Below, in pieces: positions 3,434 through 62,154 of a stretch of DNA of 64,000 nt. The position numbers were made by a program, and so were the translations under genes. Position 1 is the stretch's first letter, and each line of letters starts with the position of its first letter. Location: positions 1 through 64,000 of IMG/VR virus record IMGVR_UViG_3300045988_130114; one strand, 5' to 3'. Below the pieces are notes generated by a model. The model did not search any database. It was not told where the DNA came from and saw nothing but the letters and a program-made list of their open reading frames with translations. This stretch comes from a virus.

Positions 3434-3438
3434 ATATT

Positions 3439-12809: not shown

Positions 12810-12810
12810 A

Positions 12811-21161: not shown

Positions 21162-21237
21162 CAAAGATAGAAATAACAACCGAAGTACAAGGCGATACTG
21201 TGGATTTTCTAATAAACGTTTTACAGACAGCCATATT

Positions 21238-21308: not shown

Positions 21309-21425
21309 CGAATGTCGTTCAAGCTGGCTGGTTGATTGGTATTATGGTAGATGTGCATAGTTCGATTTTATGCGTTACTCTGGTATCGGTCAATCTTACA
21401 GCGTGGGAAGACATGCAAATTTGTT

Positions 21426-38977: not shown

Positions 38978-39850
38978 TTAGGAAACTATTTCTCCAGTAT
39001 CCTTATTTAATATCAGATGGTATTTCTTTTTTTCTCCTATTTTAGTAGTGGCTTCAATGTCTAATATTACGTTATCTCCATCTAATGAATATGTGGATTT
39101 GTTGACTCTTATCTCTTCATCGGTGATGGGGACCTGCCAAATTAGATATTTATCATATCTATACATTGAAATGTCAACACACACAACCATATTGTCATAG
39201 ATGTATACCATATTATTGTAAGATATAGGTATGTAATTATTCCTTTCAATTTCTTTAACCCATCTTTCAGCGCCTGGATCATTATTCCCAATCGTCTGCT
39301 TTAAATCACTATCCAATACTCCAATTTCATAAATTCCTGTTCTTGCAGTTTTATAAATGGCAATGTATTCTCCATACCAATCTGCTATTGCTTCCGGATA
39401 GAAGATCGTTTCTTCAAAACCAGAATAATATTCTTTGTCAAAATATTCTTTTTCAACAACCTTCCCATCTTTTATTTTCAAGATAAATTTATGTGGGTGA
39501 TAAGCTATATCTGCGTATAAACTTACCAATATATAGAGATAATCATCCTTTTTCAAGGCACTTTGAAGGAAACACCCTTTGACTATGTATTCTCTCTTAT
39601 CTCCAAACCCAAGATCATGGGTATAATTTTCTGCTTTATCTTTGATGGTAAACACCTTGTTCCCTGATTCATCAATAGCCTCTATATAGTAATCTCCTTC
39701 AAAGATATAAGCTTGTAGTTTTAGATCATCTATCGGGATAGCACTATCGATTTGGTATTTTGGAAGATCTGGTTCATCTATAGGACTTTCATTTGAACTA
39801 CAACTTGTTAATAGAATTATTGCTATGATAAAAAATGAAATCTTCTTCAT
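38978..39850 (-). CDS. lipoprotein
   Basis: Signal peptide plus lipobox MKKISFFIIAIILLTSC; counter-oriented and AT-rich. Confidence 0.7.
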   Translation of the reverse strand: MKKISFFIIAIILLTSCSSNESPIDEPDLPKYQIDSAIPIDDLKLQAYIFEGDYYIEAIDESGNKVFTIKDKAENYTHDLGFGDKREYIVKGCFLQSALKKDDYLYILVSLYADIAYHPHKFILKIKDGKVVEKEYFDKEYYSGFEETIFYPEAIADWYGEYIAIYKTARTGIYEIGVLDSDLKQTIGNNDPGAERWVKEIERNNYIPISYNNMVYIYDNMVVCVDISMYRYDKYLIWQVPITDEEIRVNKSTYSLDGDNVILDIEATTKIGEKKKYHLILNKDTGEIVS

Positions 39851-39863
39851 AATTTGTTGGTTA

Positions 39864-40985
39864 TTATTCTCTCATTGCTATTTTAAGCGATTCTTCAAGT
39901 CTATCCGCATATTTGAATATGTCATCTATGCTATCAATTTGAATCCAGTCGCAACTTTTGTAGTTATCTACTGGTATTCCTATTTGCTTCTTCCTAGTTC
40001 CAATAGAAATACGACATATCCAATACCATTGGCTGTTGTCTAAGCTTATAACGAAGTAACTTTTATAGTCTGTATAGGTGATTCGTGAAGCATCTACATT
40101 ACGTCTAAGTATGCTTCTCACAATGTTATAAGCATCCATTTCCTCTTGTGTAGTGACTATCCCTGCTTCCTTGTCCATATAAACTACTCCTTCAGGTAGT
40201 TTGTTTTCTGCATTTTCTTTGGGGAGATTAGCTAAATTACTAGAAAAATTAGTTGTGTCTTCGACCTGTTCGTCATTTTTCATTGCTGTATTAAGCCTTT
40301 CAGCTATGATATCATTTATTACAATAGACATTGACTTTTTTACAAGTGGGGTAAACATTTCAACTACCTTTTGTGTGATTTGCCCAGTTGTATATATTTG
40401 TTTTGCAAAGAATCTAACAAAATCAGATGTAGGAGATTGTATTTCTTTGTTGAAAATTTCCTTTATTTCCGTTGTGTATTTTAATTCATTTGCTGTGCTA
40501 AGAACATTGTCTTCATTGTAATAAGATTTGTGGAACTTTTTTAGTTGTTCTATGTCTGCATCAGATAGATCTAGCATATTTACAACTAAGAATGGCCTTT
40601 CATCCATGATATTAACCTTCTCCAAATCAGTATAGAAACGGTATTCTATGCCATTGGTGAGAACTCCAAAGCGAGACTTAGAAGCTACGAAATATTTTTG
40701 TAGTTGGGTGTCATGCAGATTCAAGTCCTGCTTGCAATGCTTACACTCTATAAGAAGTATCGGGTTTTCGTCCTTCATTATAGCATAGTCAATCTTTTCT
40801 CCCTTTTTTCTGATTAAGTCACAGTCCATTTCCGGAACAACTTCGAAAGGATTAAAGACGTCATACCCTAAAGAAGCTATCAATGGCATTATGAAAGCAT
40901 TTTTTGTGGCTTCTTCTGTAGATATGCTATCTTTTTGTTTTTTTATGCGGTCTGACAGTTGTAAAATTTGATCCTTGAAATCCAT
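39864..40985 (-). CDS. HsdR-N-type (type I restriction R-subunit N-terminal domain) PD-(D/E)xK nuclease-like protein
   Basis: TEEATKNAFIMPLIASLGYDVF...KIDYAIMKDENPILLIECK....FGVLTNGIEYRFY. Confidence 0.75.
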   Translation of the reverse strand: MDFKDQILQLSDRIKKQKDSISTEEATKNAFIMPLIASLGYDVFNPFEVVPEMDCDLIRKKGEKIDYAIMKDENPILLIECKHCKQDLNLHDTQLQKYFVASKSRFGVLTNGIEYRFYTDLEKVNIMDERPFLVVNMLDLSDADIEQLKKFHKSYYNEDNVLSTANELKYTTEIKEIFNKEIQSPTSDFVRFFAKQIYTTGQITQKVVEMFTPLVKKSMSIVINDIIAERLNTAMKNDEQVEDTTNFSSNLANLPKENAENKLPEGVVYMDKEAGIVTTQEEMDAYNIVRSILRRNVDASRITYTDYKSYFVISLDNSQWYWICRISIGTRKKQIGIPVDNYKSCDWIQIDSIDDIFKYADRLEESLKIAMRE

Positions 40986-45775: not shown

Positions 45776-48415
45776 ATGATAGACATCAAAGACATATCCG
45801 GCAACATTCGTTTTTCTACTTCTATCAACGAAGGATCAAAGCGGCACTTTCTTCTGATGAAGGAAGACTATATAACTTTGAAGTTTTCTCTTGCAGATCC
45901 TATCTACTTTCAACTAGGAGATGGTATAGATAACGAAATTGGCATGTTTGAGCTTGTAGATTTGTACAAGCCCACCTATAATTCTACGAGCGGTGGTTAT
46001 GATTACGAACTCCGGCTGGACGCCTACTACTGGAAGTGGAAAAACAAGAAGTTTTTCTATACTCCGGAGAGTACCGGTCGCGAGGCGAGCTGGAACCTGA
46101 CAGCCACTCTTGACGTTCATCTTAAAGTCTTCCTTGATAACCTGAAATCACTCGGATACAAATATAGAGAAGAGGATTTTAAATATGAGATTGATACTAC
46201 AGTTGAAAACACCTCCAAGCTCGTTTCATATGATAGCGTAAACCTGATTGATGCTCTTACCCAAATGGCGGAGACATGGGAGTGTGAATGGTGGATAACT
46301 GATAAGACAATTCATTTCGGACGTTGCGAATACAGCTCTCCCGTAGATTTCAAGGCCGGAGATTTGACAGATACTGAGGATGTAAACGTAAGCTCCATGC
46401 AATGTAGCGATAGTCAGACGGTTTTCGCTACTCGTGTTTATGCCTTTGGTTCAACGCGAAACATTCCTTCTACTTACCGTAAGAATCTTATTTTTGATGT
46501 CAAGCAGGCAAACGGTAGGGAAATATCCGATACGGCAAGACCGCTTGATGTAAAGTATTTCCCAAGTCGCGTCGTTCACAAAGAAGAGTATTCGGTAAAG
46601 GAAAGTATAGGTAGTGGCAGTTTTACTGCTTCTTATGTAGAATGGACGCATGACACTGATATCGTAGCTTCGTTACCTGCAGGGGATTATAAGGTTTCAT
46701 CAGGAGATGGCATATCAATTAATGTATCCACAGTTATTCCTTCAATCGGATCAGGACGTTCTTTTCTTCCTGCCGGTGATTATGTTTTGAGGGCATCTTA
46801 TGTCTATAAATTATCTGGTGTAACTAAAGAAGTTTCTATAGGTAATCAAACGGTTACCTTATCCCAAGAGCAGCAGTACGAAGTCTCTGCTGTGTTTGCT
46901 GTCGCTTCTTCTTTGCAGATTGAAGGAAATGCTACTGATTTAAAGATCAGGATATACGCACATGTCCCATCCCGTGAATCCTCTATTCTGAATGATTCTT
47001 TCTCGGCTTATGTTTCGTATGATATAACTCTATTCAAAGGATCGTCAGCAGATGCTACAGTGACCTTTCTTTCCGGACTAAATTCGGGCAAGACATTCTC
47101 CTGTGTATATAATCCGGACCATTTAATCGGTGATTCCGCTAACGTAATACAATTACCTAGCGGAGTAACGGCCTCGCTCGGTGATAGATATACAATTGAC
47201 AACATCATTAAGGGAAAGGTGCCTGACAGCTACTTTAGTAAAGATGACAAGGAGCTTACTTTAAATGGTGTGGTCCAGAAACGTCTTATGCTCCCGGAGG
47301 AAGTTCCTTATGTGGATGCTTACCGTTATAGTCCTATAGGAGAACGTATATACATTGGTGAAACTCATTATGATGACAATAATAATGTGGAGATGTCGCA
47401 GGAAGAAGCTGTAGAGGGAATTGTCATCTTTGAAGATGAACATCCCAAATATGTCGGCACATTATCAAATGTAACATACCGGGAGGAAGATGAACTTGAC
47501 GAGGACGACAATCCAACCGGAGACAAGTATCGTATCTATACGTTCAAGGATGCAGGGTTGAAGAATTTTACAAATGACTTCCGGCTGGACGGAGAAAGTT
47601 TCCGCTTGACCTTTCAGACGGGCAAACTCGCCGGCCTGGACTTTGAGTTACTTCTGCAGGAGAGTGATGATTCCGGTGCCACTTTCGAAATTGTGCGTAA
47701 TGAGGATTACGGCCGTTACCTTCCTGATGACATTTTGTTTCCTGCTGATTCTGACACATATGTTCTTTATGGTTTTGATACGGCTTATGTCTCAGAAGAA
47801 TTGATTCCGGAGGCCGAAGATGAGTTATTGAAAAAGGCAAAAGACTATGTAAAGAAGTCTATGATTGATCCTTCCACCTACGACTGTGATATGGACCCTG
47901 AGTTCATCTATAATAATGGGAATGTTATCACCTATGAGGTGGGAGACAAAGTAAACTTGATCAATAAGGCTTTCTTTCCTAAAAGCAGACAATCCAGAAT
48001 AATTGGTTTTGAGTGGCCGCTGGATATTCCTTACGATCATCCAATTTATACGGTTGGAGAGACTGCCTCATATTCGCGTATAGGCGAGATAGAGAGCAAA
48101 CTTGATTCTCTTACATACAAGGGACAGGCATATACCGGTTCTGTGTCAGGAAGTGGAGGAACGAGTATATATCTCATTGGTTTGAATGACAAGACTGTTC
48201 CTACGGATCGCAATACATTTTCGGCAAAAAGAATTATTGATGAGATTGAACGTCGCTCCCTTAGCAGCATTGAAGATGACAAAGCAGAAGGATTGATAAC
48301 TTTCGGTAAGGGATTTGTGTCGGAAGGATTTTCTGCAGCTAACGGTGGCCTTGTAGTTCGTGGCGGAGAATTGATAGAAGAAGTTGAAGATTCATTGATT
48401 GAAGAATTAGAATAA
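45776..48415 (+). CDS. tail tip / baseplate hub protein (Tal-like, putative)
   Basis: 879 aa, second gene after the TMP. Confidence 0.5.
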   Translation: MIDIKDISGNIRFSTSINEGSKRHFLLMKEDYITLKFSLADPIYFQLGDGIDNEIGMFELVDLYKPTYNSTSGGYDYELRLDAYYWKWKNKKFFYTPESTGREASWNLTATLDVHLKVFLDNLKSLGYKYREEDFKYEIDTTVENTSKLVSYDSVNLIDALTQMAETWECEWWITDKTIHFGRCEYSSPVDFKAGDLTDTEDVNVSSMQCSDSQTVFATRVYAFGSTRNIPSTYRKNLIFDVKQANGREISDTARPLDVKYFPSRVVHKEEYSVKESIGSGSFTASYVEWTHDTDIVASLPAGDYKVSSGDGISINVSTVIPSIGSGRSFLPAGDYVLRASYVYKLSGVTKEVSIGNQTVTLSQEQQYEVSAVFAVASSLQIEGNATDLKIRIYAHVPSRESSILNDSFSAYVSYDITLFKGSSADATVTFLSGLNSGKTFSCVYNPDHLIGDSANVIQLPSGVTASLGDRYTIDNIIKGKVPDSYFSKDDKELTLNGVVQKRLMLPEEVPYVDAYRYSPIGERIYIGETHYDDNNNVEMSQEEAVEGIVIFEDEHPKYVGTLSNVTYREEDELDEDDNPTGDKYRIYTFKDAGLKNFTNDFRLDGESFRLTFQTGKLAGLDFELLLQESDDSGATFEIVRNEDYGRYLPDDILFPADSDTYVLYGFDTAYVSEELIPEAEDELLKKAKDYVKKSMIDPSTYDCDMDPEFIYNNGNVITYEVGDKVNLINKAFFPKSRQSRIIGFEWPLDIPYDHPIYTVGETASYSRIGEIESKLDSLTYKGQAYTGSVSGSGGTSIYLIGLNDKTVPTDRNTFSAKRIIDEIERRSLSSIEDDKAEGLITFGKGFVSEGFSAANGGLVVRGGELIEEVEDSLIEELE

Positions 48416-48416
48416 T

Positions 48417-51400
48417 ATGGCAATACTAAGTAACGGTAAGTTCTACGGATTTCTTTGTTCTGTGAAAGCGACAGGACGTAAGTTGTCGAACGGCGTAAAG
48501 GAATACGTCGAAGACTTCGTGTCCGGATTTGCCGGTCATGGATGGAAGCTGTGGGAGTATATCAAGGGCAAATGGAAGCTGGAGATAGACAGTCTTGTTG
48601 TTCGCGAGACAATGGTCGTTTTTGAGCTTCTTATTCAGAAGATCCGCGCGGTGAAGGGTGCACTGGGTATCACTCAGGCATGCGGCCGTATAAAGACTGC
48701 CACGCTGGATGAGTCCGGACAAAACTGGCTGGTCACCATAGAGGATGAGATGTCTTTTGTCGCACACGATTTCATCCGGTGCCAGGATTGGACGAATGGT
48801 ACCCTTAAAGGCTATTGGGTCGAGATATCCGAAATACGCAAGATTGACGGTGTTGATACAATCGTCATACCTGTCAGTGAGTTCACCGGCGGTATAGGTT
48901 ACACAGACGGCATGGAGGCTGTTGATCCGGCATTGTCGGGTATGACTACTCCGGCTGTCAGTGATGAGATTGTCCAGTTCGGTAACTCGAAGGATGTAAA
49001 TCGTCAGAGTGCGATCTATCTGCATGCCGATGAAGGTGGACAGCCTGCAATCGATATTCTGTTTGGTATCAACAGCAAAAGTTTTGCCGGTTGTACGAAA
49101 ATCCGTATGGGCGGTGATATTCCCGGAACAGACGGGCTTAAGGGTTTCTATTGCGAAAATGGTATGATCAAAGGTACAGACTCTAAAGGGCATGTCGTTT
49201 ACTGTATCTATCCGGACGGTACTGCTGAGTTTGGAGACGGATCAGCCCGATTTGCTACAGATAGATCAGGTCACATAGCCGGAGGTGCCATTTCGTGGTA
49301 TTGGGACGCATCGAAAAAAAAATATGTGTGCTCCATGAAGGGAGTGGTTCTAACGTGGGATAATCTGGACGAGGAAGCAAAGGAGAATCTAAAGGGCGAA
49401 CCGGGTAAAGATGGACAGCCCGGTACGGATGGCAAACCGGGTACTGACGGTAAAGACGGTACAAGCCTCATTTTTATGGGGGAATTCTCTTCTGCTCCGG
49501 CAAATCCTCAGAACGGATACTGGTATCGTAATACTACCGACAAGAAATGCTACGTATACCAGGATGGCGCATGGTATGTGATGACTGAGGATGGAAAGAA
49601 TGGTCTTGACGGCGAAGGAAGTATTTCTGCTGATCTTGACGATGAAATGCAGTCTGTAGCTTGCTCTCTGGACGGGACAGTGGTATTCGGTTTGCCCATC
49701 ACAACAACATTCTCTATGTTCTACGGAACAACCGAGCTTCCTCTTGATTCTCTTTCTGTAGGTAGCATTACAGGCGTGACAGCAACGGCTGATCGTAGCA
49801 CGGGGATAGTTAAGGTTACAGCTATTACTGCTACGGTGGCTGATGTAATTCGTATACCCATAACGGGACGGGTAACATACAAAGGTTCTCAATATGAACG
49901 TACCCTGCATTTATCGATAAACAAAGTGAAGCCGGGGGAGAATGGAGAGAATGGGACCGACGGAACAAATGGTCAGAACGCGGTCATTTACTCGCTTCAG
50001 CCATCGACCAATATCATAAAGAGAGATGCTGACGGGAACAGTGATGTCTCGAATATATCCTGCCGGGTAATGAAGACCGACGGAGCTTCTACTGTCGTAT
50101 CCTCTCTGCCGGTTGGCTACTCAATGGATTATATTATAGACTCAGGGAATGCGACTAGCTATACTCCGGATAAGCAAATATCCGTCTCCGGGATAACAGA
50201 TAAGATACAGTTCCGGCTTTACAATGAAACATCGGGAGTAGTACTGATCGACCGCGAAACGATTGCTGTTGTCTCAGACGGGAAGAAGGGGCTTGACGGT
50301 ATAAATGGTGAAGATGGTAAAGACGGGCTCAGTATTACGTGGAAAGGGGATTTATCAAGCGCTCCTGCCAATCCTCAAAAAAACTGGGCTTATCGCAATA
50401 CCAGTAATGGTATCGTCTATATCTATAACGGCACCGCTTGGGAGTTGATGGTTGCGGACGGTCAGGACGGAACAGATGGTACTGACGGCACGGATGGCCT
50501 GAGTGTTTTCATTACATACCATGACAGCGAAGATGAGCCATCCCGTCCGACCGGAAGCGGGACAAGCGGAGGATGGCATACTAACGCTACAAAAGATGTT
50601 GTCTGGATTTCTCAGAAGGTCGCTTCAAGCGCTTCTTCCGGCACATGGGGTGATCCTATACGATTCAAGGGATTGCCGGGAAAATATACGGAACTACGGT
50701 ATAAGTATGCTTTCGGAAAGCCTGCTACGCCTACCGGTACAAATCCGGCAGGATGGTCCCTTTCTCCGGATCGGGAGGATATTACCTTCTCGTATTCGGG
50801 TAACTTTACAAAAGACGGTGATTACTATGTCTCTCCATCTCCTACATCTCATTCCTCGACATACAAGCAAAGGGTGTCATTTACGACAAGAAGAGCTAAT
50901 CAGATGATACATATAGAGATTGATGTATCATCCGAGCAGAACTACGACAAAGGTATCGTAGAAGCCCTTGATACATCATATAGCAGTTCCAACGAACATG
51001 CCTGGGAGGGAAGTGGAGTAACCAATGCGGTGGTGGATATTGCAGTGCCTACAGCCGGCAGTCACTTTGTTGAAATTGTATACACGAAAGACAGCAGCAC
51101 AAGTAATAACGAGGACAGAGTCAAGTTCCGTATGCTCGATCCTACTACCTGTTGGTATTCCACCGCAGTGATTGATAGTAAAACAACTCCTTCCTGGAGC
51201 GAACCTGTCATATTCCCAACGGACTCCAAGACCGAGGAGCAGGTTTACCTGCTTGCAAAGTCTAAGCGTAATGTTATTGACCTCCCGACATCCAACGAAT
51301 ACGTTAACGAATACATTGGTGATGCTTCTGAATACAGTAGCTCAAAATTCTATTCGGCAGGTAACATAGTAAAATACAATAATGTATACAAGGTAGCTAT

Positions 51401-52631
51401 TCAGGCGCATTCGGGGATTGCTCCGACCAATGAAGCATACTGGGAAGATGTGCTATGGTGGGTGGATAATCCTCGTGGCGCATCGGAAACTTATCCTTAT
51501 GAGTACACTTGTGAACGTACTCTACAGGATGGAAAGTGGGGAGAGTATAAGAATTATCACCTGTTTGGGCATTACGGGAAGGACGGCGAACCGGGAGAGG
51601 ATGCAAATCTCCTTCCCTGGGTAGAAGATTGGAACAATAATAAAACAGAAATAGGTGGAGAATACCTTATTTCACCTAAGATATTTTCTGGAACCAAGGA
51701 TAGCAGTGGGAAACTGACCGGTATTGCATTAGGAAGAGATTGTATTACAGTCGATGGAGAGAAAAGAACGGGAATCTTTGCTCTTGTGGGTGGAAATATT
51801 GTATTTAAACTTGACCCAATATCCGAAGAGTATGAGTTTCAGGGTAGTGTGGTGGCAGATTCAATTACAATGAAAGATTTTGCACATCTTTCACAGGCTA
51901 TATTTAAAGGAGACTTTATGTTCTCTCAACAAGGAATAGATGCTGATGGGAATCCAACCTCCAATTATCAAGAATTTAATCAGGAAAATCCGCAGGGTGG
52001 GAATTTTAAACCTAATCTGGCATTCAATCTTAAAACAGGGGATCAATATTCGAATGGGGGACATGTATATGGATTTGCGACCAATACTCCTATACAAGCT
52101 AATGGTACTTCAGTAGATCCCGACAAGGTTGCTTACAGTAAAGTGAACATATTATTTAGCGGAACTTCTTCCTTGCGTTTGCCTAATGATAAGAAGTTTG
52201 ATGGAGTTGAATTCACAATTGTAAGTACTGCTTCCCGATCATTTGATGGTAGTGCAAATATTTATAGGGAAGGTGGAGGAGATACTAATTACTCAGCTAC
52301 AGGTATACACTACAAAGGTGTAGAAATTAGGACGTGCTATATGAGATCGGAAGGGTCATTTATAAGGTTGATCGCTCATTGGAACGGTTCTAAATTAAAA
52401 TATTACGTAGTCGGTCATAGTGATAATTTTGTCATGATTGAGCCTATTTTAAACACTCAAGGAGCAAGTGCAACACTGGGTATATGGTTTGTAGATCGAG
52501 TTTATACATCAAGTACTAGCATGCGAGTCTATTATAACGATATTAATTTATTCTTATTTATGCTCAACGTGTATAGTGGAAAAGACGCTCCTAATACTGG
52601 TGGTTTAAACTTTACTTCTCCAAGTAGTTGA
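48417..52631 (+). CDS. large tail fibre with collagen-like G-X-Y segments
   Basis: 1404 aa; five G-X-Y runs; repeated SAPANPQ..W.YRNT..Y.Y.G..W module. Confidence 0.85.
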   Translation: MAILSNGKFYGFLCSVKATGRKLSNGVKEYVEDFVSGFAGHGWKLWEYIKGKWKLEIDSLVVRETMVVFELLIQKIRAVKGALGITQACGRIKTATLDESGQNWLVTIEDEMSFVAHDFIRCQDWTNGTLKGYWVEISEIRKIDGVDTIVIPVSEFTGGIGYTDGMEAVDPALSGMTTPAVSDEIVQFGNSKDVNRQSAIYLHADEGGQPAIDILFGINSKSFAGCTKIRMGGDIPGTDGLKGFYCENGMIKGTDSKGHVVYCIYPDGTAEFGDGSARFATDRSGHIAGGAISWYWDASKKKYVCSMKGVVLTWDNLDEEAKENLKGEPGKDGQPGTDGKPGTDGKDGTSLIFMGEFSSAPANPQNGYWYRNTTDKKCYVYQDGAWYVMTEDGKNGLDGEGSISADLDDEMQSVACSLDGTVVFGLPITTTFSMFYGTTELPLDSLSVGSITGVTATADRSTGIVKVTAITATVADVIRIPITGRVTYKGSQYERTLHLSINKVKPGENGENGTDGTNGQNAVIYSLQPSTNIIKRDADGNSDVSNISCRVMKTDGASTVVSSLPVGYSMDYIIDSGNATSYTPDKQISVSGITDKIQFRLYNETSGVVLIDRETIAVVSDGKKGLDGINGEDGKDGLSITWKGDLSSAPANPQKNWAYRNTSNGIVYIYNGTAWELMVADGQDGTDGTDGTDGLSVFITYHDSEDEPSRPTGSGTSGGWHTNATKDVVWISQKVASSASSGTWGDPIRFKGLPGKYTELRYKYAFGKPATPTGTNPAGWSLSPDREDITFSYSGNFTKDGDYYVSPSPTSHSSTYKQRVSFTTRRANQMIHIEIDVSSEQNYDKGIVEALDTSYSSSNEHAWEGSGVTNAVVDIAVPTAGSHFVEIVYTKDSSTSNNEDRVKFRMLDPTTCWYSTAVIDSKTTPSWSEPVIFPTDSKTEEQVYLLAKSKRNVIDLPTSNEYVNEYIGDASEYSSSKFYSAGNIVKYNNVYKVAIQAHSGIAPTNEAYWEDVLWWVDNPRGASETYPYEYTCERTLQDGKWGEYKNYHLFGHYGKDGEPGEDANLLPWVEDWNNNKTEIGGEYLISPKIFSGTKDSSGKLTGIALGRDCITVDGEKRTGIFALVGGNIVFKLDPISEEYEFQGSVVADSITMKDFAHLSQAIFKGDFMFSQQGIDADGNPTSNYQEFNQENPQGGNFKPNLAFNLKTGDQYSNGGHVYGFATNTPIQANGTSVDPDKVAYSKVNILFSGTSSLRLPNDKKFDGVEFTIVSTASRSFDGSANIYREGGGDTNYSATGIHYKGVEIRTCYMRSEGSFIRLIAHWNGSKLKYYVVGHSDNFVMIEPILNTQGASATLGIWFVDRVYTSSTSMRVYYNDINLFLFMLNVYSGKDAPNTGGLNFTSPSS
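49395..49463 (+). repeat. collagen-like G-X-Y run (GEPGKDGQPGTDGKPGTDGKDGT)
   Basis: Direct translation. Confidence 0.9.
49935..49979 (+). repeat. collagen-like G-X-Y run (GENGENGTDGTNGQN)
   Basis: Direct translation. Confidence 0.85.
50289..50327 (+). repeat. collagen-like G-X-Y run (GLDGINGEDGKDG)
   Basis: Direct translation. Confidence 0.85.
50460..50498 (+). repeat. collagen-like G-X-Y run (GQDGTDGTDGTDG)
   Basis: Direct translation. Confidence 0.85.
51576..51599 (+). repeat. short collagen-like run (GKDGEPGE) at the composition break
   Basis: Direct translation. Confidence 0.7.
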
Positions 52632-53260: not shown

Positions 53261-53869
53261 ATGGCAAAACCTAGTTGGTTAAAATTAAATCCGTCTACCG
53301 GATCAGGTAACGGGACAATTGCAAATAGCGCAGACGCTCACACTGGGCGTACTGCTCGTACAGGAACAGTAACGGTGACCGGTGTCGGTGTATCCACTCC
53401 TTCGACCTATAAGGTAACTCAGTCACCGAAGTCTGAGTTTGCTTCCTTTGATAATGGTTCTGAGATGTCTGCTCCTAAAACAGCAGGAACAGTGACCGTC
53501 GAGGGTAAAACAAACTCTTCGAAATTGACGTTTGCGTGGGCGGGAAGCGTAACAGATGTTACCTTGCCTGCAAAGTATAGCGCGAATGGAACGCAGATTA
53601 ACAATGCGGCTACTATTACCGGTGACCCGGGAGCTACTGCGGAATTTCCTTTCTCTATCGAGTTGGAGTTTCCTAAAAACGATACTATCGAAGAGGTCGT
53701 TAGAACCTTAAAGGTGACGGCCAATGGCGGACAGGCTGCTCAGATTGCTATCAAACAGGCTGCCGGTGATGCTACATTGTCTGTTTCTCCGGCGGAAATT
53801 ACTATTCCTCAGAGTGGATCTGCTGTATCCGTCAATGTTACGTCTAACACTTCTTGGACTGCCGCATAA
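53261..53869 (+). CDS. BACON-like Ig-domain protein (two domains)
   Basis: SWLKLNPSTGSGNGTIANSADAHTGRTARTGTVTVTG....YKVTQ and a second LSVSPAEITIPQSGSAVSVNVTSNTSW unit. Confidence 0.6.
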   Translation: MAKPSWLKLNPSTGSGNGTIANSADAHTGRTARTGTVTVTGVGVSTPSTYKVTQSPKSEFASFDNGSEMSAPKTAGTVTVEGKTNSSKLTFAWAGSVTDVTLPAKYSANGTQINNAATITGDPGATAEFPFSIELEFPKNDTIEEVVRTLKVTANGGQAAQIAIKQAAGDATLSVSPAEITIPQSGSAVSVNVTSNTSWTAA

Positions 53870-55591: not shown

Positions 55592-56040
55592 AGGAAGCTA
55601 TAGTACATACAACTACAGGCGGATTTGCGGCAATCGCTACCGCATTTGTTTCCGAGTCATTGCAGAATATGATTCCGTGGCTGATTGTATCATGCGCGGT
55701 AATCCTTTGTGATCTTCTCTTCGGTGTCAGAAAAAGTATGCTAATGGGTGAAAAAGTCAGATTCTCTCGTGCAATTCGCGCTACTATGGGAAAGATGGTT
55801 ACTTATTTTGCTTTTGTCTGCATGGTCTGCATGATCACTGTGGCAAGTCATAGCGAATATCCTATCGATGTATATTCCTGCTTATTGGTATGCTTTATTG
55901 AAGGGTGTTCGATTGTCGGCAATATATTGAAACCAAAGGGGATCAATATAAATGTAATTGGAGCTTTGGGAGTCTTTGGAAAGAAGGTGTTCAAGGTTGA
56001 TAAAGAAGATGTGAAGGAGATTATAGAAAAGGAGAAGTAA
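55588..56040 (+). CDS. holin (phage_holin_4_1-like)
   Basis: ATG 55588; multi-TM; LCDLLFGVRKS and FIEGCSIVGNILK motifs. Confidence 0.65.
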   Translation: MKEAIVHTTTGGFAAIATAFVSESLQNMIPWLIVSCAVILCDLLFGVRKSMLMGEKVRFSRAIRATMGKMVTYFAFVCMVCMITVASHSEYPIDVYSCLLVCFIEGCSIVGNILKPKGININVIGALGVFGKKVFKVDKEDVKEIIEKEK

Positions 56041-56048
56041 GTATGAAT

Positions 56049-56501
56049 TTATACACTATTATTTATGTTCTTCCCTTTTTGCTTTTTATCATACTCTATG
56101 CATTTGCGGAGAATAAGCCCAAAAATGGCAAAAGGAGTGTAAAGAATCGCAGAAGCTTGAAGAAACGTAGTTAAAGCATGTTCATATCCTAGGATGTAAT
56201 CTGAAGGAGATATAAGTAATTTAGACGATGTCACTAATATGGGAAGAATTAGTATAAAGGCTTCTAGTTTGTATCTTCTTTTTGATATAGAAGAACATAG
56301 ACATAACCATATAAAAGAAAAGTAAATGGATAATATAGAAGAAGTTGCCGTAAATATGATTTGCAAATATACATCGAGAGATTTAAACTCTGGTATATAT
56401 AAATACAAAATAGAAAAGCATAGTGGCAGTTGTATGCAAAATCCTGTAAATACATTCTTTTGTTCAGCGTTATAGCTTTTTATTAATTCTGAAATATCCA
56501 T
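56049..56501 (-). CDS. counter-oriented polytopic membrane protein
   Basis: ORF track; about 4 TM; very AT-rich; inserted between the holin and the endolysin. Confidence 0.55.
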   Translation of the reverse strand: MDISELIKSYNAEQKNVFTGFCIQLPLCFSILYLYIPEFKSLDVYLQIIFTATSSILSIYFSFIWLCLCSSISKRRYKLEAFILILPILVTSSKLLISPSDYILGYEHALTTFLQASAILYTPFAIFGLILRKCIEYDKKQKGKNINNSV

Positions 56502-56545
56502 AGGTGTATCATTTTTTGCAAAAGTAATAAATTATAAAATAGAAA

Positions 56546-56815
56546 ATGAATATGATAAATAAAATCAGCGCACTAGCCGGCAAGCTTCTATCCATGATAG
56601 GCATAGACGGCATGGTCCACATTATAGTATGCCAGAATTTGGTTATGTGGCTATCAAAATATATTCCGCTATGGTTAGCGGTCGCTATAACCGTTGCGAT
56701 CTTTATTCTGAAGGAAATATACGACAAGTATTGTAAGAAAAGCGAGTTTTCCATCAAGGATATTATCTGTGATTGCGGAGGTTTGGCGTTGGGAGTATTA
56801 ACATTAATTTTATAG
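56546..56815 (+). CDS. small membrane protein (lysis-associated?)
   Basis: Three hydrophobic segments; directly upstream of the endolysin. Confidence 0.45.
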   Translation: MNMINKISALAGKLLSMIGIDGMVHIIVCQNLVMWLSKYIPLWLAVAITVAIFILKEIYDKYCKKSEFSIKDIICDCGGLALGVLTLIL

Positions 56816-56827
56816 GAGGAAACATAT

Positions 56828-57346
56828 ATGGCAGATGTGAAGAAATTGGCACCGTTTATTCTAAAATGGGAAGGCGGTTTCGTTAATGATCCGGATGATT
56901 TGGGAGGTGCTACTAATATGGGTGTAACAATCGCTACCTATGAGGCGTATTGTAGAAAGAAAGGCTATCCTAAACCGACTATAGAGAGACTAAAGAATCT
57001 TTCCAAGGAGGAATGGACAGAGATATTGAAAACTATGTACTGGGATAGATGGAAGGCAGACGAGATCAAGTCTCAGTCGGTCGCTAATATTTTAGTTGAT
57101 TGGATATGGGCCTCCGGTATTCATGGTATCAAGATTCCGCAGGAATTGGTTGGTGTAATGCCGGACGGAATTGTCGGACCAAAAACTATAGCGGCAGTTA
57201 ATTCTAAGAATCCACGCGAGTTATTCGATCGTATCAAGATTGCCCGCTTCGATTTTATAGAAGATATCTGCCGGAAGCGTCCCGCAAACAACAAGTTCAA
57301 ACGCGGATGGTTGAACAGAGTTAACGATATCAAATTTGAATCATAA
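56828..57346 (+). CDS. endolysin, GH108 muramidase with PG-binding domain
   Basis: [24 protein letters not shown] is the GH108 signature; C-terminal DGIVGPKT is PG_binding_3-like. Confidence 0.9.
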
Positions 57347-57363
57347 TAAGAGGAGGAACAATC

Positions 57364-57645
57364 ATGAAATCAACAGTTATAACCTTCACAAAGGGTGAGA
57401 AGAATTATGTAAGCGATGCCGTTCAGGTAAATTCTGCGGAAGTAGGATTGCAGATTACATTTGAAAAAGGCGGTAAACTTTGGGTGTATATAAGCTATGA
57501 CGGGCAGAATTACTCTTCAGTGGACAGCAGAAACTACACAAAAGACTTTGCTCGTTCGATTGTCGGTTGTATCCCTGGACAGTATCTCAAAATCGAATGT
57601 GAAACAGAACCGGTAAAGGCTTCTATCTTTGAATCGGAAGAATAA
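57364..57645 (+). CDS. hypothetical protein
   Basis: ORF track; overlaps the next start. Confidence 0.5.
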   Translation: MKSTVITFTKGEKNYVSDAVQVNSAEVGLQITFEKGGKLWVYISYDGQNYSSVDSRNYTKDFARSIVGCIPGQYLKIECETEPVKASIFESEE

Positions 57646-60182
57646 TGGACGCAATAGGATTAAATCCAATTAAGCTTGATGCGATAGGGCTTGATCCTAT
57701 TCGCATGAATGCGATACGCTTAGGAGTTCCGGGAGCTTCTTCCGGTTCCGCCCGTCCCTACATCGACCCCGACTTGCTCAAGCACGTCAAGATGGCCATC
57801 TCCACCTGGGGCAAGTCCAACGACGACCCCGACCGGGCAATCTTGAAGGACTTGTCCGGCAACGGGAACGACATGCGCCTGCTGAACTTCGGATTTGCAG
57901 AGGGCAGTGGATATGGGCTGTATGGAACTGATTTTACTACTTATCAAACTGTTCCTGCCTCTGTAGAAGTTGTTAGAACACATAATAAACTATCTGCTAC
58001 AAATCATGGCATTATAGGTCATATGATTATCTATAAAACCATTGAAGATTCTTCTAGTTATCCGGATACTCCTGCTTTTAAAATAAAAGTTACTAATTTA
58101 ACTAGCGAATTAAGATACTTTTATGTTAGTGAGACCAATACGGCTATCAGAACTTCAATTGCTATTACTTCTGATGGAGTGTATGATTTGCCTGAATCTA
58201 AGAATACATTATTTAATGGCACAGAACCTATTAATATTGGATTCTCAACATCCGCCGGCGGTTCTGTTACTATCGAGCAACTCCCCGACTTCGAAGGCTG
58301 GCTATGTACAGACGGAGTAGACGACATAATCGAGTCCGTCAAGCCCGTCTCTGAGATGTTGGAGGGTAGCAATGAGATTACGGTGGTGAGTATTATTCAT
58401 CAGATATCAACTCCAAATACCAATAATTATACTAATGTAATTAGAACTAAAGCTGATTCTTATGGTGTTTCTATCGCAGTAGGGAAAGATGTAAGCAATG
58501 GTAAAACAGGAATATATGGATATACGGTAAAAGAAGGTAGTGCTACTATTATTAATTCAATATTAGGAGATAAAGCTGATTATACCCTTAGATACAACAA
58601 TATTAATGCAAATATTGATTCTAAATTTTTTGTACAGGGTTGGTATCTTAATGGAAGTTACAGAGAATTATCTCAGATCGCTTACGCCGGAGGCTTCATC
58701 GCCAACAAAGTCCTGACCACCGACGAAATCAATCAGATCATCTCCTATTTCAACTTGGACCGTCCGGGACAGATTATCAAGCCTCAGTTGTACTACAACA
58801 TCAAGAAGCAGGGTATCACAAACGAGAACCACGCAGAGTTCAACGATCAGTTGATTGACTTTGTAGGAGGTCACAACATTCAGCTAAACAATATCGGCTG
58901 GGAAGGAGAGAGTGGTATCAATAGCTATCCTGTAATTTTCGGTGTTAATAAGACTTGGAATGCTCAAGGTAGTAAAGAGGATGATAAATATTATATTTAT
59001 ACTAGTAGTGCTAATAAGTATAATATTACACAAATTAAAATTAGTAGTTCTTTATTTTATAGTTATATAAAAAGGAATGGAGAGTTAACTAGTGATAATA
59101 AAGATATACCATCTTTTAAACTTAAAGTAACTGGATTAGACTATGATAAATTTTACTTAGCTTATTATTATTTAAAATCATCAGATGTAGAAGTTAAGAA
59201 TGTTACTAATATTACTTCTGATGGAATTTATGAATTGCCTAAATCGTTTGCTAGTGACGGAAGTTTAACTGAAACTAATTCTTACATAGGATTAAGTTTT
59301 ATTAGAAAATCAGCTAATATTCCTGATGTAGTAAAAAATGTAAATGTTACCATCGAAGTCCTCCCCACCATCGAACACGCTCTCAGCCTAGACGGAATCA
59401 ACGACTTCGGCAAGGTAACCGGTCTCCCTGTTTTGAAGGACTATACGGTAGTGGCTCTTCGTAAATGGTTATATGGTGATTCTGTAACAAGTACTGAAAC
59501 TGGCTCTATTGTTTCTAAATGTAAAGTTGGTAATAACGGTGCTTTTATTTTAGAACAGACGTTTAATCGAAATCCTTCTCGCTCTAGCACCTTTTCTTTT
59601 GGCACAATTAACTCGTTGATGAGTAACGATAAGTTGAACGAAGAATCATTTACTTATCAAACTAAATATAGTTATAACGGGGAGACTATAGTATCTGGTT
59701 CCGGTGTTGATGGTGACTCCATGTGGCTAGGAACGATTAGAGACGGTGATGCTCGTTTCTCTAAACTTGCATTATGGTCTCTCATGCTCTTCCCCTACAG
59801 TCTCTCCGAGTTCCTGTTGGAACGCCAACTGAGAAAGTACAAGGCAGGAACGCTATATCCGGATATGATTGAGTTCAGACCGATTGTAAAGAGTAACATC
59901 CCTTACTCTTCAATCTCCTACTCAGTTAATCCAGGAGAATACATTGTCGAAGGTAGCGCAGTAACTATCACCATAACCTTGTCAAATGCTTCTGATAAAC
60001 TGGTCGGTGTATCATCCAACGCCATCAGCGACATATCCACCTCTGGAGACAATGGTGTCTATGAAGTAACCGGAAAGGTCGCCAAGTCTCCTCAGAAGAT
60101 CAGCATAGTTATCTCCAGCTACTTGACAATGTTAGGTAACGAGACTTTAATTTCGAATAAAAAATTAATTAAAAACGAATAA
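57645..60182 (+). CDS. internally duplicated LamG/ConA-like lectin-fold protein (receptor-binding candidate)
   Basis: Two homologous halves (PAFKIKVTNL/PSFKLKVTGL; ITSDGVYDLPESK/ITSDGIYELPKSF; VTIEQLPDFEGWLCTDGVDD/VTIEVLPTIEHALSLDGIND). Confidence 0.75.
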   Translation: MDAIGLNPIKLDAIGLDPIRMNAIRLGVPGASSGSARPYIDPDLLKHVKMAISTWGKSNDDPDRAILKDLSGNGNDMRLLNFGFAEGSGYGLYGTDFTTYQTVPASVEVVRTHNKLSATNHGIIGHMIIYKTIEDSSSYPDTPAFKIKVTNLTSELRYFYVSETNTAIRTSIAITSDGVYDLPESKNTLFNGTEPINIGFSTSAGGSVTIEQLPDFEGWLCTDGVDDIIESVKPVSEMLEGSNEITVVSIIHQISTPNTNNYTNVIRTKADSYGVSIAVGKDVSNGKTGIYGYTVKEGSATIINSILGDKADYTLRYNNINANIDSKFFVQGWYLNGSYRELSQIAYAGGFIANKVLTTDEINQIISYFNLDRPGQIIKPQLYYNIKKQGITNENHAEFNDQLIDFVGGHNIQLNNIGWEGESGINSYPVIFGVNKTWNAQGSKEDDKYYIYTSSANKYNITQIKISSSLFYSYIKRNGELTSDNKDIPSFKLKVTGLDYDKFYLAYYYLKSSDVEVKNVTNITSDGIYELPKSFASDGSLTETNSYIGLSFIRKSANIPDVVKNVNVTIEVLPTIEHALSLDGINDFGKVTGLPVLKDYTVVALRKWLYGDSVTSTETGSIVSKCKVGNNGAFILEQTFNRNPSRSSTFSFGTINSLMSNDKLNEESFTYQTKYSYNGETIVSGSGVDGDSMWLGTIRDGDARFSKLALWSLMLFPYSLSEFLLERQLRKYKAGTLYPDMIEFRPIVKSNIPYSSISYSVNPGEYIVEGSAVTITITLSNASDKLVGVSSNAISDISTSGDNGVYEVTGKVAKSPQKISIVISSYLTMLGNETLISNKKLIKNE
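57648..57731 (+). repeat. 2.8 x 30-nt tandem repeat encoding DAIGLNPIKL/DAIGLDPIRM/NAIRLGVPG
   Basis: Direct reading at the 5' end of the gene. Confidence 0.75.
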
Positions 60183-60183
60183 T

Positions 60184-61824
60184 ATGGAAAAGATATTTGA
60201 TATAGCAAAGGACTCCGAAAAGTCGTGGGGAGTCATTGCGCAAGGGATAGATGGGAATTTTGAGGAGTTAAGCCTCAAAGTGGACGGAACGCGGAGGATT
60301 ACTGGTAAGGATTTCTATAATGGACTGTATGAGTATGGAACCGGTATCAAGGATAGCAGGTATAATGTTGTATGTGGCCCATTGAAAATTTCTGTAGGAG
60401 AAAAAATAAACATTGTTCCTTCTGGTACAACAAAAATGGGAGCAAGAATATTCGACAGCGAGAATCTCACCAATGCGACTACGTTGAAGAATACAATTGA
60501 TATATTATCAGAATACGAATATATTTCAGAATTTGACGGATATATTCTTTTTAGCGCAAACGACACAAGAGGTGTTGTTATTTCTGCTGAAACATGCACA
60601 GTTTCAATTTCGCTTGTCAACAATTTAACAGATAAGATAAACGACAAGATTGAAAAGTTAGAAGAAGAAGTTTCAAATTTAGATATTAATATATGTTGCA
60701 CTCCATTTTCTCACGTAAATACGACGATAGTAAACGATTGCCAGCATAGCGATTCGTATGAATTGTCAAACGGAGAAATTGACGCAACAAACAAACTGCT
60801 TTGGAATCATTCGTTGCATATAAACAACGGAAATGTTGTGTTTAAGATAAATCCTATTAACCTTGTTGACAATGTTTTATCGTTAAAGATGATGATAAAT
60901 AGCATTGCATCAAGCGAAAAAAGCGTAGAGGTTAAGATATATAACAACACAGAGTCAAACAATTACTATGTTTATGAATTGATGCGGGCAAACGTCAACA
61001 CTGTATATGGCACATGGCGTGAATACACAATACCATCACTTGCGTATTGGTATAAAAATGGAAATTCTGTCAATCTAGAGAGTATCGACAGAATATCTAT
61101 CAGTGGAGTTAATTGCGATTTTAATGTACAGTATGTAGGAATTAAGTCAAATAGACTGAAAAAAGGTATTGTGACATTTACATTTGACGACGGCTATAAG
61201 TCACAAGCTCTTGCTATGAAGGCTCTCGCAGAAAGAGGATTGAGCGGAACTATCTTTGCAATAAAGGATACTTTTAGCTATGGCGATGATAGTGAATACC
61301 TCAACTTAAATGGATTTAGAGAAGTTGTTGATAAATATAACGCTGATATAGAGTGTCACGGAGCATCATCATTTGATGATATGTCAGACGATAATGAATT
61401 GGCTACGTATATGCAGCAAACGAAACAAATGCTTATTGATAACGGACTTGGAAAGGGAGACTATATGGCATATCCAAATGGATTCCACTCTGATCGAGTT
61501 GTCAACATTGCGAAAAGATTCTTTAAGGCATGCCGAACAATCCAGAATTATATACCGATGGAAACCTATCCCCCGTATGATTTGTATCGAATAAGAGCGT
61601 ACAGTAATATCAAGTCATCAAGTACAGACAAGATTAAACAGCTTATTGACAGGTCTGTAGCTTCTGGGGCATGGCTTATTTTAGTATATCATAAAATTGA
61701 AGATGGAGAAACGGGGATGTATTGCAGCCTTGAGTCATTAGAGGAAGTAATTGACTATGCTGTCAATTCGGGTATTAGGATTATGAACTTTAAGGATGTC
61801 TTTGAATCTGGAGTCGTTATTTAA
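60184..61824 (+). CDS. tail-associated protein with C-terminal NodB/CE4 polysaccharide deacetylase domain
   Basis: GIVTFTFDDGYKSQ (TFDDG motif) and IECHGASSFDD, YPNGFHSDR in the C-terminal 220 aa. Confidence 0.75.
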   Translation: MEKIFDIAKDSEKSWGVIAQGIDGNFEELSLKVDGTRRITGKDFYNGLYEYGTGIKDSRYNVVCGPLKISVGEKINIVPSGTTKMGARIFDSENLTNATTLKNTIDILSEYEYISEFDGYILFSANDTRGVVISAETCTVSISLVNNLTDKINDKIEKLEEEVSNLDINICCTPFSHVNTTIVNDCQHSDSYELSNGEIDATNKLLWNHSLHINNGNVVFKINPINLVDNVLSLKMMINSIASSEKSVEVKIYNNTESNNYYVYELMRANVNTVYGTWREYTIPSLAYWYKNGNSVNLESIDRISISGVNCDFNVQYVGIKSNRLKKGIVTFTFDDGYKSQALAMKALAERGLSGTIFAIKDTFSYGDDSEYLNLNGFREVVDKYNADIECHGASSFDDMSDDNELATYMQQTKQMLIDNGLGKGDYMAYPNGFHSDRVVNIAKRFFKACRTIQNYIPMETYPPYDLYRIRAYSNIKSSSTDKIKQLIDRSVASGAWLILVYHKIEDGETGMYCSLESLEEVIDYAVNSGIRIMNFKDVFESGVVI

Positions 61825-61881
61825 CGTAAGTCAACTACTTAAGATAACTCAATATTAACTGACTTGTTATAAAAAGCAATT

Positions 61882-62154
61882 ATGAAATACACTGTATTCC
61901 CAACAATTGACTTGCAAGAGGTTCCTCAAGAGGAGATAGACAAGCGTAACCTTGTACCTCGCAAGAGCGTAAATGAAAGTAAAACTTTGATGAAATGCCA
62001 GCACTATGCTGAGTTATTTCCTCATAAGATGATTAAGACTATTGCTGATGACGGAACGGAAGAGCTATCTTTTCCTTATCCTACCTATGAAGGCGAAGAG
62101 TTGAATACTTTATTATCCGGTCCGGAGTGGTCATCAAGTGAAAGTATCATATGA
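61882..62154 (+). CDS. hypothetical protein
   Basis: ORF track. Confidence 0.45.
   Translation: MKYTVFPTIDLQEVPQEEIDKRNLVPRKSVNESKTLMKCQHYAELFPHKMIKTIADDGTEELSFPYPTYEGEELNTLLSGPEWSSSESII

Follow-up and report, generated by a model that had tools for sequence, protein, structure and literature searches.

Wholesale cassette exchange and silent-site GC enrichment of frameworks in a putative receptor-binding gene of human-gut Bacteroides phages

We examined positions 1 to 64,000 of the IMG/VR virus record IMGVR_UViG_3300045988_130114 (this whole 64,000-nucleotide stretch is referred to as the window), and within it a plus-strand open reading frame (ORF) at 57645..60182 that encodes 845 amino acids and lies where a preliminary description of the sequence had placed it. 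The gene is a combinatorial mosaic whose cassettes are exchanged wholesale between phages, a conclusion in which we have high confidence from comparison of homologous genes. Its product is probably a carbohydrate-recognising protein of the receptor-binding or tail-fibre type, as suggested by its predicted fold, its neighbourhood and its variability. Cassette replacement, which the preliminary description had proposed, explains the mosaic, but by itself it leaves unexplained why the frameworks between the cassettes have a G+C content at third codon positions (GC3) above that of the genomes in which they reside, and the cause of this excess is the interesting part of the finding. The combined account of function, mosaicism and composition given below seems to us somewhat better than an even bet; the part of it that ascribes the framework GC3 to a cause linked to recombination is held more tentatively, at rather less than even chances.

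The base composition of the ORF changes in steps. Along its length the GC content in 100-bp windows runs 0.62, 0.28, 0.56, 0.25, 0.47, 0.21, 0.54, 0.33 and 0.48-0.51 (whole-window GC, 0.379), giving five GC-rich and four AT-rich blocks whose edges agree within about 20 nt with those described previously. Local GC dispersion is larger at 56-60 kb than anywhere else in the window (standard deviation, sd, 0.089-0.091 versus 0.035-0.079). The mosaic is in fact stronger than had been described, and nearly all of the contrast comes from third codon positions: over 30-codon windows of the ORF, GC3 spans 0.07 to 0.97 and the G+C contents of first and second positions (GC1 and GC2) are almost flat. Of the 53 ORFs in the window, this one stands out most in GC3, with a windowed-GC3 sd of 0.239 versus 0.037-0.168 in the 52 others, and it holds 10 of the 15 codon windows with GC3 of at least 0.7 and 12 of the 18 with GC3 of 0.1 or less. 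When synonymous codons were shuffled within the gene among positions with the same amino acid, none of 2000 shuffles reached the observed sd (null sd 0.087 ± 0.010, z = 15.6). The flatness of GC1 and GC2 together with this permutation therefore excludes amino-acid composition as the cause of the GC contrast.

We divided the gene, in residues of the window's protein and on the codon-aligned family, into an N-terminal segment N0, frameworks G1 to G5 and cassettes A1 to A4, all encoded on the plus strand. G1 (aa 31-88, 57735..57908) has a GC3 of 0.84 overall and of 0.97 for codons 41-80. A1 (aa 95-200, 57927..58244; GC3 0.16) is an optional insert predicted to form a beta-sandwich domain, and is followed by G2 (aa 205-242, 58257..58370; GC3 0.63), which contains ..VTIEQLPDFEGWLCTDGVDDII... 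A2 (aa 245-335, 58377..58649; GC3 0.15) is the hypervariable core of a predicted first scaffold, and G3 (aa 338-422, 58656..58910; GC3 0.66) comprises the end of that scaffold, a linker and the first strands of a second. A3 (aa 428-562, 58926..59330; GC3 0.10, GC 0.21) is again an optional predicted beta-sandwich insert, paralogous to A1, just as G4 (aa 566-600, 59340..59444; GC3 0.63), with ..VTIEVLPTIEHALSLDGINDFGKV.., is paralogous to G2. A4 (aa 603-695, 59451..59729; GC3 0.28) is the hypervariable core of scaffold 2, and G5 (aa 700-845, 59742..60179; GC3 0.49) contains the end of scaffold 2 and a C-terminal beta domain. The scaffold-end segment of G5, ..SEFLLERQLRKYKAGTLYPDMIEF.., is the most conserved block of all and is GC3-rich in nearly all lineages. 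The internal duplication reported earlier is real, the two halves being 33% identical over 109 aa (E 7e-12) and the inserts A1 and A3 40% identical over 55 aa (E 2e-11); the DNA repeats of the duplication are about 1047 nt apart and are located in the AT-rich parts.

Relatives of the protein are numerous, forming about 7,800 clusters at 90% identity and 1,353 at 50% identity, many of them giant multi-module proteins. Homologues are known from the jumbo myoviruses DAC16, DAC19, DAC20, DAC22, DAC23 and SJC03, whose host is B. thetaiotaomicron, and from many crAss-like phages including the cultured crAss002. Nearly all homologues in cultured phages are labelled 'hypothetical protein', and one is labelled 'pentaxin family'. 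We gathered 72 IMG/VR loci, 62 of which contributed full genes to a codon alignment. The GC3 profile of the window's gene closely follows the mean of this family (rho 0.95), and across it the proposed equation of GC-rich blocks with conserved framework holds, smoothed GC3 being correlated both with amino-acid identity (rho 0.78) and with column occupancy (rho 0.70). The AT-rich blocks are likewise divergent or optional across the 62 homologues, as had been claimed of them.

Exchange of these blocks is evident at the population level, as the proposal of cassette replacement with recombination at the conserved framework had anticipated. Clustering at 85% nucleotide identity yielded 6 allele types of A1 (which is absent from 39 of the 62 genes), 14 of A2, 11 of A3 (absent from 15) and 12 of A4, and 3-6 types of each framework. 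Block combinations reassort freely, since pairwise distances between non-adjacent blocks are uncorrelated, and A4 assorts independently of every other block (rho ~0). Identity profiles against the window's gene step at block edges from 100% to 36-62%. One relative (L007) is 100% identical to it for about 1,080 nt and then only 38-62% identical across A4, another (L004) differs from it only in A2 and A4, and a third (L006) is without A1, has a different A2 and is 100% identical from A3 onward. A3 behaves as a clean presence/absence module, some proteins being 98-100% identical over aa 1-425 and then resuming at aa 576; other near-identical proteins are missing roughly aa 98-190, in the A1 region. 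All 2052 sharp identity transitions fall at the edges of or inside frameworks and none inside any cassette. Homologue alignment thus places the hypervariability in the AT-rich blocks and the breakpoints at or in the frameworks. Identity at four-fold synonymous sites is 0.67-0.77 in frameworks versus 0.44-0.61 in cassettes, which marks the cassettes as old alleles and the frameworks as either young or homogenised.

In mechanistic terms, the frameworks serve as substrates for homologous crossover, and the four independently assorting cassettes between them are replaced wholesale by unrelated alleles, each probably an old and little-recombining lineage. Partners in such exchange span phage groups, including jumbo myoviruses of 25% GC and crAss-like phages.

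A conserved scaffold with hypervariable segments also resembles the targets of built-in diversification systems, and the gene had been put forward as a candidate 'switching' locus. Variation could in that case be generated by a diversity-generating retroelement (DGR), by an invertible segment of the shufflon type or by gene conversion with silent cassettes elsewhere in its own genome as donors. We consider this very improbable. No significant second copy of any part of the gene was found in the rest of the 64-kb window with blastn or tblastn, no alternative cassettes of the shufflon type occur in the window, inverted repeats around the cassettes are only short and weak, with no long ones flanking them, and no reverse transcriptase or invertase was found among 24 window ORFs scanned, neighbours included. 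The variation itself consists of whole-cassette replacement and presence or absence, not of substitutions at adenines. From the lack of silent copies, invertase and reverse transcriptase in the scanned parts of the window we conclude that the shuffling therefore takes place between genomes; a DGR, shufflon or silent-cassette system was rejected, and 'switching' in the sense of a built-in switch was not borne out. One point in favour of such a system comes from a crAss-like relative (L237, 102.5 kb) with an RVT_1 reverse-transcriptase gene at 12452-13477, about 2.3 kb downstream of its family gene. That phage may have a DGR of its own; nothing equivalent was seen in the window. Upstream in L237 lies a gene of 2647 aa with weak Laminin_G_3 and sialidase matches.

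Sources of individual cassettes can be recognised. The phages DAC23 and DAC16 are of 25-29% GC with GC3 of 0-0.15, and in both the homologue is a giant ORF in which several scaffold-plus-insert modules of the same architecture stand in tandem. The DAC23 gene (DAC23_162, locus L073) encodes 2700 aa, and its DAC16 counterpart (DAC16_162, locus L076, 2210-7291) encodes about 1,690 aa, of which the first ~800 are a full family member with GC3-rich frameworks and the later modules are uniformly AT-rich. Allele A3-B matches DAC modules at up to 90.4% nucleotide identity over 405 nt (best member, locus L045), and the window's own A3 copy is 87.7% identical to modules in DAC16 and DAC23; A3-F reaches 81%, A1-F 78%, and A3-G and A3-I 69%. 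L055 is the sole family member with a longer DAC-like tract, and within that tract its frameworks are AT-richer. From these matching alleles and the frameworks of L055 it follows that the composition of AT-rich tracts follows provenance. In the cassettes, every class of codon ending in G or C (S, as opposed to A or T, W) is depleted compared with the remainder of the phage, and their young variants imply an equilibrium GC3 of about 0.23-0.25, near the present 0.20. At synonymous sites, the AT-rich cassettes would have the composition of the AT-rich phages in which they circulate. In the DAC 'cluster gamma' phages, which are myoviruses of 177 kb, host range is dependent on the type of capsule (bioRxiv 10.1101/2020.03.04.977157).

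The frameworks present a different problem. Their GC3 (0.5-0.97) lies above that of every resident genome sampled: 0.36 for phages like the window's (flank GC 0.34-0.42), 0.18 for crAss002, 0.05-0.1 for DAC phages and, among crAss-like loci, 0.21-0.26 for L237 and L238 and 0.21-0.41 for L239. The five GC3 peaks nevertheless recur in homologues of 38-45% identity that reside in these backgrounds, including DAC16, and no cassette allele type has GC3 above 0.32 (0 of 43). We favour, tentatively, the reading that the GC3-rich state would be a regional property re-created repeatedly in recombining segments. The force behind it might be GC-biased repair of heteroduplex, akin to GC-biased gene conversion (gBGC), or alternatively preferential spread of GC-rich linker alleles; lineages that left the exchange pool would then decay toward the AT-rich composition of the genomes in which they reside. 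A more specific version of this idea, which we regard as rather doubtful, is that the frameworks are recombination hot segments with G/C-biased repair or transmission, and so hold either an intragenic record of gBGC or selfish GC-rich 'recombination handles', with the non-recombining cassettes sliding to an AT-rich mutational equilibrium. Such a process would operate in bacteriophages on a scale of 100-250 bp and would extend over siphoviruses, jumbo myoviruses and crAss-like phages of gut Bacteroides.

If provenance alone were responsible, the frameworks would stem from an unsampled GC-rich phage or host lineage, would have been spread by recombination and would now be decaying, and the cassettes would derive from AT-rich phages. 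Composition does track source in the AT-rich tracts shared with DAC phages, the frameworks of L055 among them, and the frameworks coalesce more recently than the cassettes. The GC-rich frameworks of DAC16 are about 81-83% synonymous-identical to those of L237 and L239, which points to recent import, and AT-rich versions of frameworks exist (G1-B, G5-B and blocks of L238 and crAss002). Young variants are moreover net S>W, with an implied equilibrium near 0.4 that approximates the genome average. On the other hand, no sampled background has GC3 above ~0.45, and a GC-rich donor should have donated cassettes too, yet the 43 cassette allele types include no GC-rich one. Individual G1-A sequences deviate from their consensus in both directions, which looks unlike a star-like decay, and the codons of the frameworks (CCC and CTC, with little four-fold NNG) are unlike those of typical high-GC bacteria.

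Deep lineages are also at odds with simple descent from a GC-rich source. Between L075 and the clade of DAC16, L237 and L239, synonymous S/W agreement is 0.52-0.63 versus 0.50 expected, and the S/W phi coefficient is 0.04-0.25 overall and -0.11 to +0.13 at four-fold sites; both nevertheless keep framework GC3 near 0.5-0.57. The GC-rich framework state is thus not inherited site by site. Overall, we judge provenance alone to be unlikely. The same uncorrelated S/W states led us to reject a further candidate, namely that lineages converge on one codon choice to preserve homology.

Neither is the GC-rich state required by the encoded protein. The GC richness of G1 depends on the allele (GC3 0.69-0.845 in type A and 0.29-0.31 in type B), and type B is about 53% identical in amino acids to type A, keeps its core motifs and is saturated at synonymous sites relative to it. 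Elsewhere, AT-rich framework versions occur as G5-B and in parts of L238. The effect is also regional and not per-residue: conserved columns are GC3-richer than variable ones inside frameworks (0.58 versus 0.45, p = 0.002) but not inside cassettes (0.19 versus 0.17, p = 0.77).

These last comparisons bear on synonymous selection, by which framework codons would be tuned for translational accuracy or speed at residues critical to the structure, or for the pace of co-translational folding, with the cassettes resting at an AT-biased mutational equilibrium. Such selection would favour NNC, ATC and split-box NNG codons, and the codon classes of the window's gene fit this pattern better than they fit a blanket W>S preference (NNY>C 0.76, ATC 0.66, two-fold NNR>G 0.63, four-fold G 0.08). 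The richer GC3 of conserved framework columns is in line with it, as is the recurrence of S-ending preference in independent lineages. However, conserved residues within cassettes show no such effect, and in G1-B (0.30), G5-B, L238 and crAss002 AT-rich DNA encodes the same conserved framework peptides. Other genes of the phage that are conserved or presumably highly expressed lack the bias: a portal-like control gene shows no relation between GC3 and conservation (rho 0.0), and NNY>C is just 0.30 in the ORF at 32026-33063 (345 aa). Four-fold sites, at which third-base misreading is silent, are elevated too, and the amplitude of 0.07-0.97 is far above reported accuracy effects. We therefore reject per-residue accuracy selection as the main cause, given the AT-rich alleles of the same blocks and the lack of effect in conserved cassette columns, and regard synonymous selection in its wider sense as improbable.

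Overlapping function within the GC-rich blocks, be it antisense genes or structured RNA or DNA, might also constrain third positions. Three antisense ORFs noted earlier over the first GC-rich blocks are indeed present (57720-57983, 58121-58372 and 58668-58874); they encode 68-87 aa over G1, G2 and G3, and synonymous divergence is lower in the frameworks. Two of the three are in the exactly antiparallel codon frame, which is expected to be free of stops once TTA, CTA and TCA are avoided in the sense strand. Of the G1-A relatives, only 15% have an open shadow frame across G1, and none of the G1-B relatives does; conservation is lower for the antisense peptide than for its sense counterpart (0.834 versus 0.914). 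On the grounds of frame openness and peptide conservation, we rejected antisense genes as the cause of the GC3 peaks; the minus-strand ORFs over G1 (57720..57983) and G3 (58668-58874) are by-products of high sense GC3 and not genes. An Rfam scan of 56000-62000 gave no match reaching threshold. Overlapping function of any kind is, in our estimation, the remotest of the explanations considered.

Several trends favour a recombination-linked cause of the framework GC3. GC3 by G1 allele is 0.76 for A, 0.52 for C and 0.30 for B, and by G2 allele 0.60, 0.53, 0.43 and 0.39 for A to D, the commonest and most widely recombined alleles being the GC-richest. In the neighbouring mosaic tail gene at 45776-48415, GC3 is correlated with conservation in a family alignment (rho 0.54, z 2.9), conserved segments having GC3 of 0.45-0.53 versus 0.26-0.37 in variable ones. 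The adaptor of the gene immediately downstream deviates in the same direction (GC3 0.41 versus 0.29-0.30 in its bodies), unlike the portal-like control. The excess over resident genomes, its recurrence, its regional and protein-independent character, its lack of site-by-site inheritance and these trends among alleles and in the neighbouring genes fit a force tied to recombining segments. As gBGC would have it, GC3 is raised in recombining segments irrespective of the residues encoded. Four-fold G is raised in the frameworks of L237 and L239, unlike those of the window's gene.

A number of observations nevertheless weigh against a simple gBGC reading. Under gBGC all W>S classes should be favoured alike, which is not so in the window's gene, and W>S variants should segregate at higher frequency than S>W ones, which is not seen among the 62 genes. 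Four-fold C and two-fold G are raised in the frameworks of the window's gene (0.40 versus 0.17 and 0.63 versus 0.39 genome-wide, respectively), but four-fold G is not (0.08 versus 0.15). Young synonymous variants in framework alleles are S>W-heavy, with S>W:W>S ratios of 43:20 among singletons and 47:19 among shared variants; the W>S share is accordingly 0.32 and 0.29, without W>S enrichment among older variants, although 62 genes afford low power. The equilibrium GC3 implied by framework variants is about 0.4 versus the current 0.6, and tree-polarised counts (161 S>W versus 85 W>S) agree, although parsimony is biased in the same direction. The unraised four-fold G and the S>W-heavy young variants are as predicted by codon selection or passive decay. 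In crAss002, the GC-rich state has been lost in 3 of 5 frameworks. Finally, the GC3 effect at the junction within the gene immediately downstream is only a weak one.

Silent-site heterogeneity also occurs in other parts of the window. The tail genes at 45776-48415 and 48417-52631 both deviate from synonymous shuffles (z ~3) and have GC3 peaks of 0.6-0.72, for example at 45956-46100, 47540-47690 and 48489-48780.

We used profile searches and structure prediction to explore what the protein might be. At the sequence level it had been called LamG-like, and this finds no profile support. Pfam gave no match at E ≤ 0.1-1 for the query, 6 family members or 5 giant representatives, PHROGs and NCBIfam gave none for the protein, phmmer and hmmsearch with a family profile found none in the PDB, and the PF13385 (Laminin_G_3) profile, like those of all other families, matched neither the query nor any of 16 relatives searched. 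The motifs ..SGNGND.., ..DGxDD.. and ..LTTDEI.., presumably similar to LamG_3 signatures, were taken as a lead only.

Structure comparison gives the LamG-like label moderate support. A first AlphaFold2 (AF2) model, from a shallow alignment of two clades, reached good confidence in just three regions, A1 (aa 94-214), A3 (aa 427-575) and the C-terminal domain, each of them beta-rich; its Foldseek matches were near noise, with the inserts weakly resembling carbohydrate-binding modules (CBMs). When a third clade was added to the alignment, the resulting model had a mean predicted local distance difference test score (pLDDT) of 62.9. With this second model, Foldseek matched trypanosomal (trans-)sialidases with a ConA-like lectin domain (probability ~1.0, E 1e-4), botulinum-toxin binding domains, and many viral ConA-like lectin or glucanase, LamG-like jelly-roll, minor tail and tail fiber proteins (E 1e-7 to 1e-5, probability at least 0.98); TM-scores were low, the query consisting of several domains. 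The protein most likely has a pair of ConA/LamG-like jelly-roll scaffolds in tandem, with an optional CBM-like beta-sandwich domain inserted into each, and ends in a C-terminal beta domain. Variable blocks need not then be surface loops, as it had been suggested they might be, because two of the AT-rich blocks, A1 and A3, are predicted to be autonomous optional beta-sandwich domains.

A role in receptor binding, and with it the label of a 'host-range' locus, is suggested by fold, neighbourhood and variability. Hypervariable, exchanged parts are joined to a conserved, putative attachment part, and the gene lies beside the tail module, near fibre genes and a gene with a deacetylase domain, though after the holin and endolysin genes. 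Against this role stand the lack of any profile match described above, the only moderate confidence of the beta-rich scaffolds in the second model (pLDDT 55-76) and the position of the gene after the lysis genes, outside the main tail block.

N0 (aa 1-30, 57645..57734; GC3 0.33) is probably the virion-attachment end of the protein. It consists of three repeats of about 10 aa (DAIGLNPIKL, DAIGLDPIRM and NAIRLGVPGA) and is one of three alternative N-terminal types in the family; the two other types of relatives, MLNRLSLNKLSLNRVDLNRIG.. and MSGGAKGIGLGIDF.., are repeat-like too. These alternatives may be lineage-specific virion-attachment sequences. At the opposite end, a 39% identical member on a Bacteroides contig from a metagenome-assembled genome (L075, 5992-9096) has an extra C-terminal region of BspA-type leucine-rich repeats (LRR_5, E 3.7e-5, below the curated cutoff), and this protein terminates with the conserved peptide found at the C-termini of the family.

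Cassette-type mosaicism of receptor-binding proteins is already familiar. Mosaic tail-fibre and receptor-binding genes with conserved linkers include T2/T6-type gp38, in which hypervariable segments lie between glycine-rich motifs, and the fibres of the P2, Mu and lambda families; the VR2 region of the Streptococcus thermophilus phage antireceptor is flanked by collagen-like repeats. As in these genes, conserved segments of the gene described here flank hypervariable specificity segments, homologous exchange occurs there between unrelated phages, and a role in host range is presumed. The gene differs from them in having no sequence relationship, in exchanging whole cassettes of 90-135 aa, and in its two optional autonomous domains and four assorting positions. 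To our knowledge, a silent-site GC3 excess of linkers above the resident genome has not been described for mosaic receptor-binding systems, and our literature search found no description of this gene or its GC3 pattern. With ConA-like lectins and LamG domains (Laminin_G_3, PF13385; pentraxin-like) the protein shares a predicted beta-sandwich fold; it differs in having no match to a hidden Markov model and in the moderate confidence of the structural model.

Recombining bacterial genes are said, in work by Lassalle et al. of 2015 and related studies, to have higher GC3. Similarly, the recombining segments here are GC3-higher independently of amino acids and genomic background. Unlike that bacterial pattern, the effect is intragenic, at a resolution of 100-250 bp, of very large amplitude and in phages, and the polymorphism and four-fold G signatures are not seen. 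In the Neisseria pilE/pilS and Borrelia vlsE systems, silent donor cassettes reside in one genome, and the vls locus is markedly GC-richer than its genome. These systems too combine a conserved framework with variable cassettes and are driven by recombination, and vls likewise deviates upward in GC from an AT-rich genome; they differ in that the window contains no silent cassettes and the donors are other phage genomes. Mtd of phage BPP-1, the target of a DGR, has a C-type-lectin fold in which a stable scaffold carries hypervariable ligand-binding residues. It shares with our gene the combination of stable scaffold and hypervariable parts in a (putative) phage receptor-binding protein, but here no template repeat or reverse transcriptase was found in the scanned parts of the window and whole cassettes are replaced in place of adenine-directed substitution.

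What is new is first a large unannotated family, without a Pfam, PHROG or NCBIfam model, that probably plays a central part in how human-gut Bacteroides phages recognise their hosts. It is common to three virion types (siphovirus-like phages, 177-kb myoviruses and Crassvirales), and at least one insert cassette of about 135 aa (405 nt) moves between virion types at up to 90% nucleotide identity. Also new is the excess of GC at the silent sites of the linkers, which reaches a GC3 of 0.97 in a genome of 38% GC and recurs in deeply separated lineages. If a recombination-linked bias is its cause, the long-debated occurrence of gBGC outside eukaryotes would become directly testable in a compact system that is repeated thousands of times in public metagenomes and has cultured relatives, namely the DAC phages on B. 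thetaiotaomicron and crAss002 on B. xylanisolvens. The block map shows phage engineers where cassettes can be swapped, and GC3 steps could mark exchange junctions from sequence alone.

In the gene immediately downstream (60184..61824, plus strand), a conserved N-terminal adaptor of 28 aa (60184-60267), MEKIFDIAKDSEKSWGVIAQGIDGNFEE, precedes a swappable body, which in the window contains an HfsH-like polysaccharide-deacetylase domain. Across 58 relatives (loci L001-L070), no fewer than 15 unrelated bodies of 399-803 aa follow the adaptor, with 28 distinct body starts. The gene looks like a tail spike built from an adaptor and a swappable enzyme. Also among the neighbours are genes for a holin and a GH108 endolysin, tape-measure, distal-tail and fibre genes at 41-53 kb, and a BACON-domain gene and a gene for a gp53-like tail-fibre C-terminus at 53-55 kb. 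The BACON-domain ORF (53261-53869, 202 aa; also matching the viral BACON_2), which lies in the tail-fibre region, has the highest GC of the tabulated ORFs (0.478). A BACON protein in the tail-fibre region is known from crAss-like phages.

Shortly before the tape-measure gene, the otherwise plus-strand structural region is broken by two minus-strand genes (38978-40985). One of them (39864-40985) encodes the N-terminal domains of a type I restriction enzyme R subunit (HSDR_N), and the pair could be a moron or a defence or anti-defence insert. Products of the early region (3334-4092, 6144-6911 and 17782-18627) include at least two anti-repressors of the Ant type, Rha-like regulators and a PAPS-reductase-like protein. 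Such a gene set points to a lifestyle that is temperate or pseudo-temperate, yet the family gene was located in just 2 of about 185,000 species-representative bacterial genomes. ARAGORN identified a tRNA-Cys(GCA) at 21089-21162 and, 76 nt downstream, a second tRNA-like gene at 21238-21309 with an irregular anticodon loop in which the anticodon is given as the two bases 'tc'.

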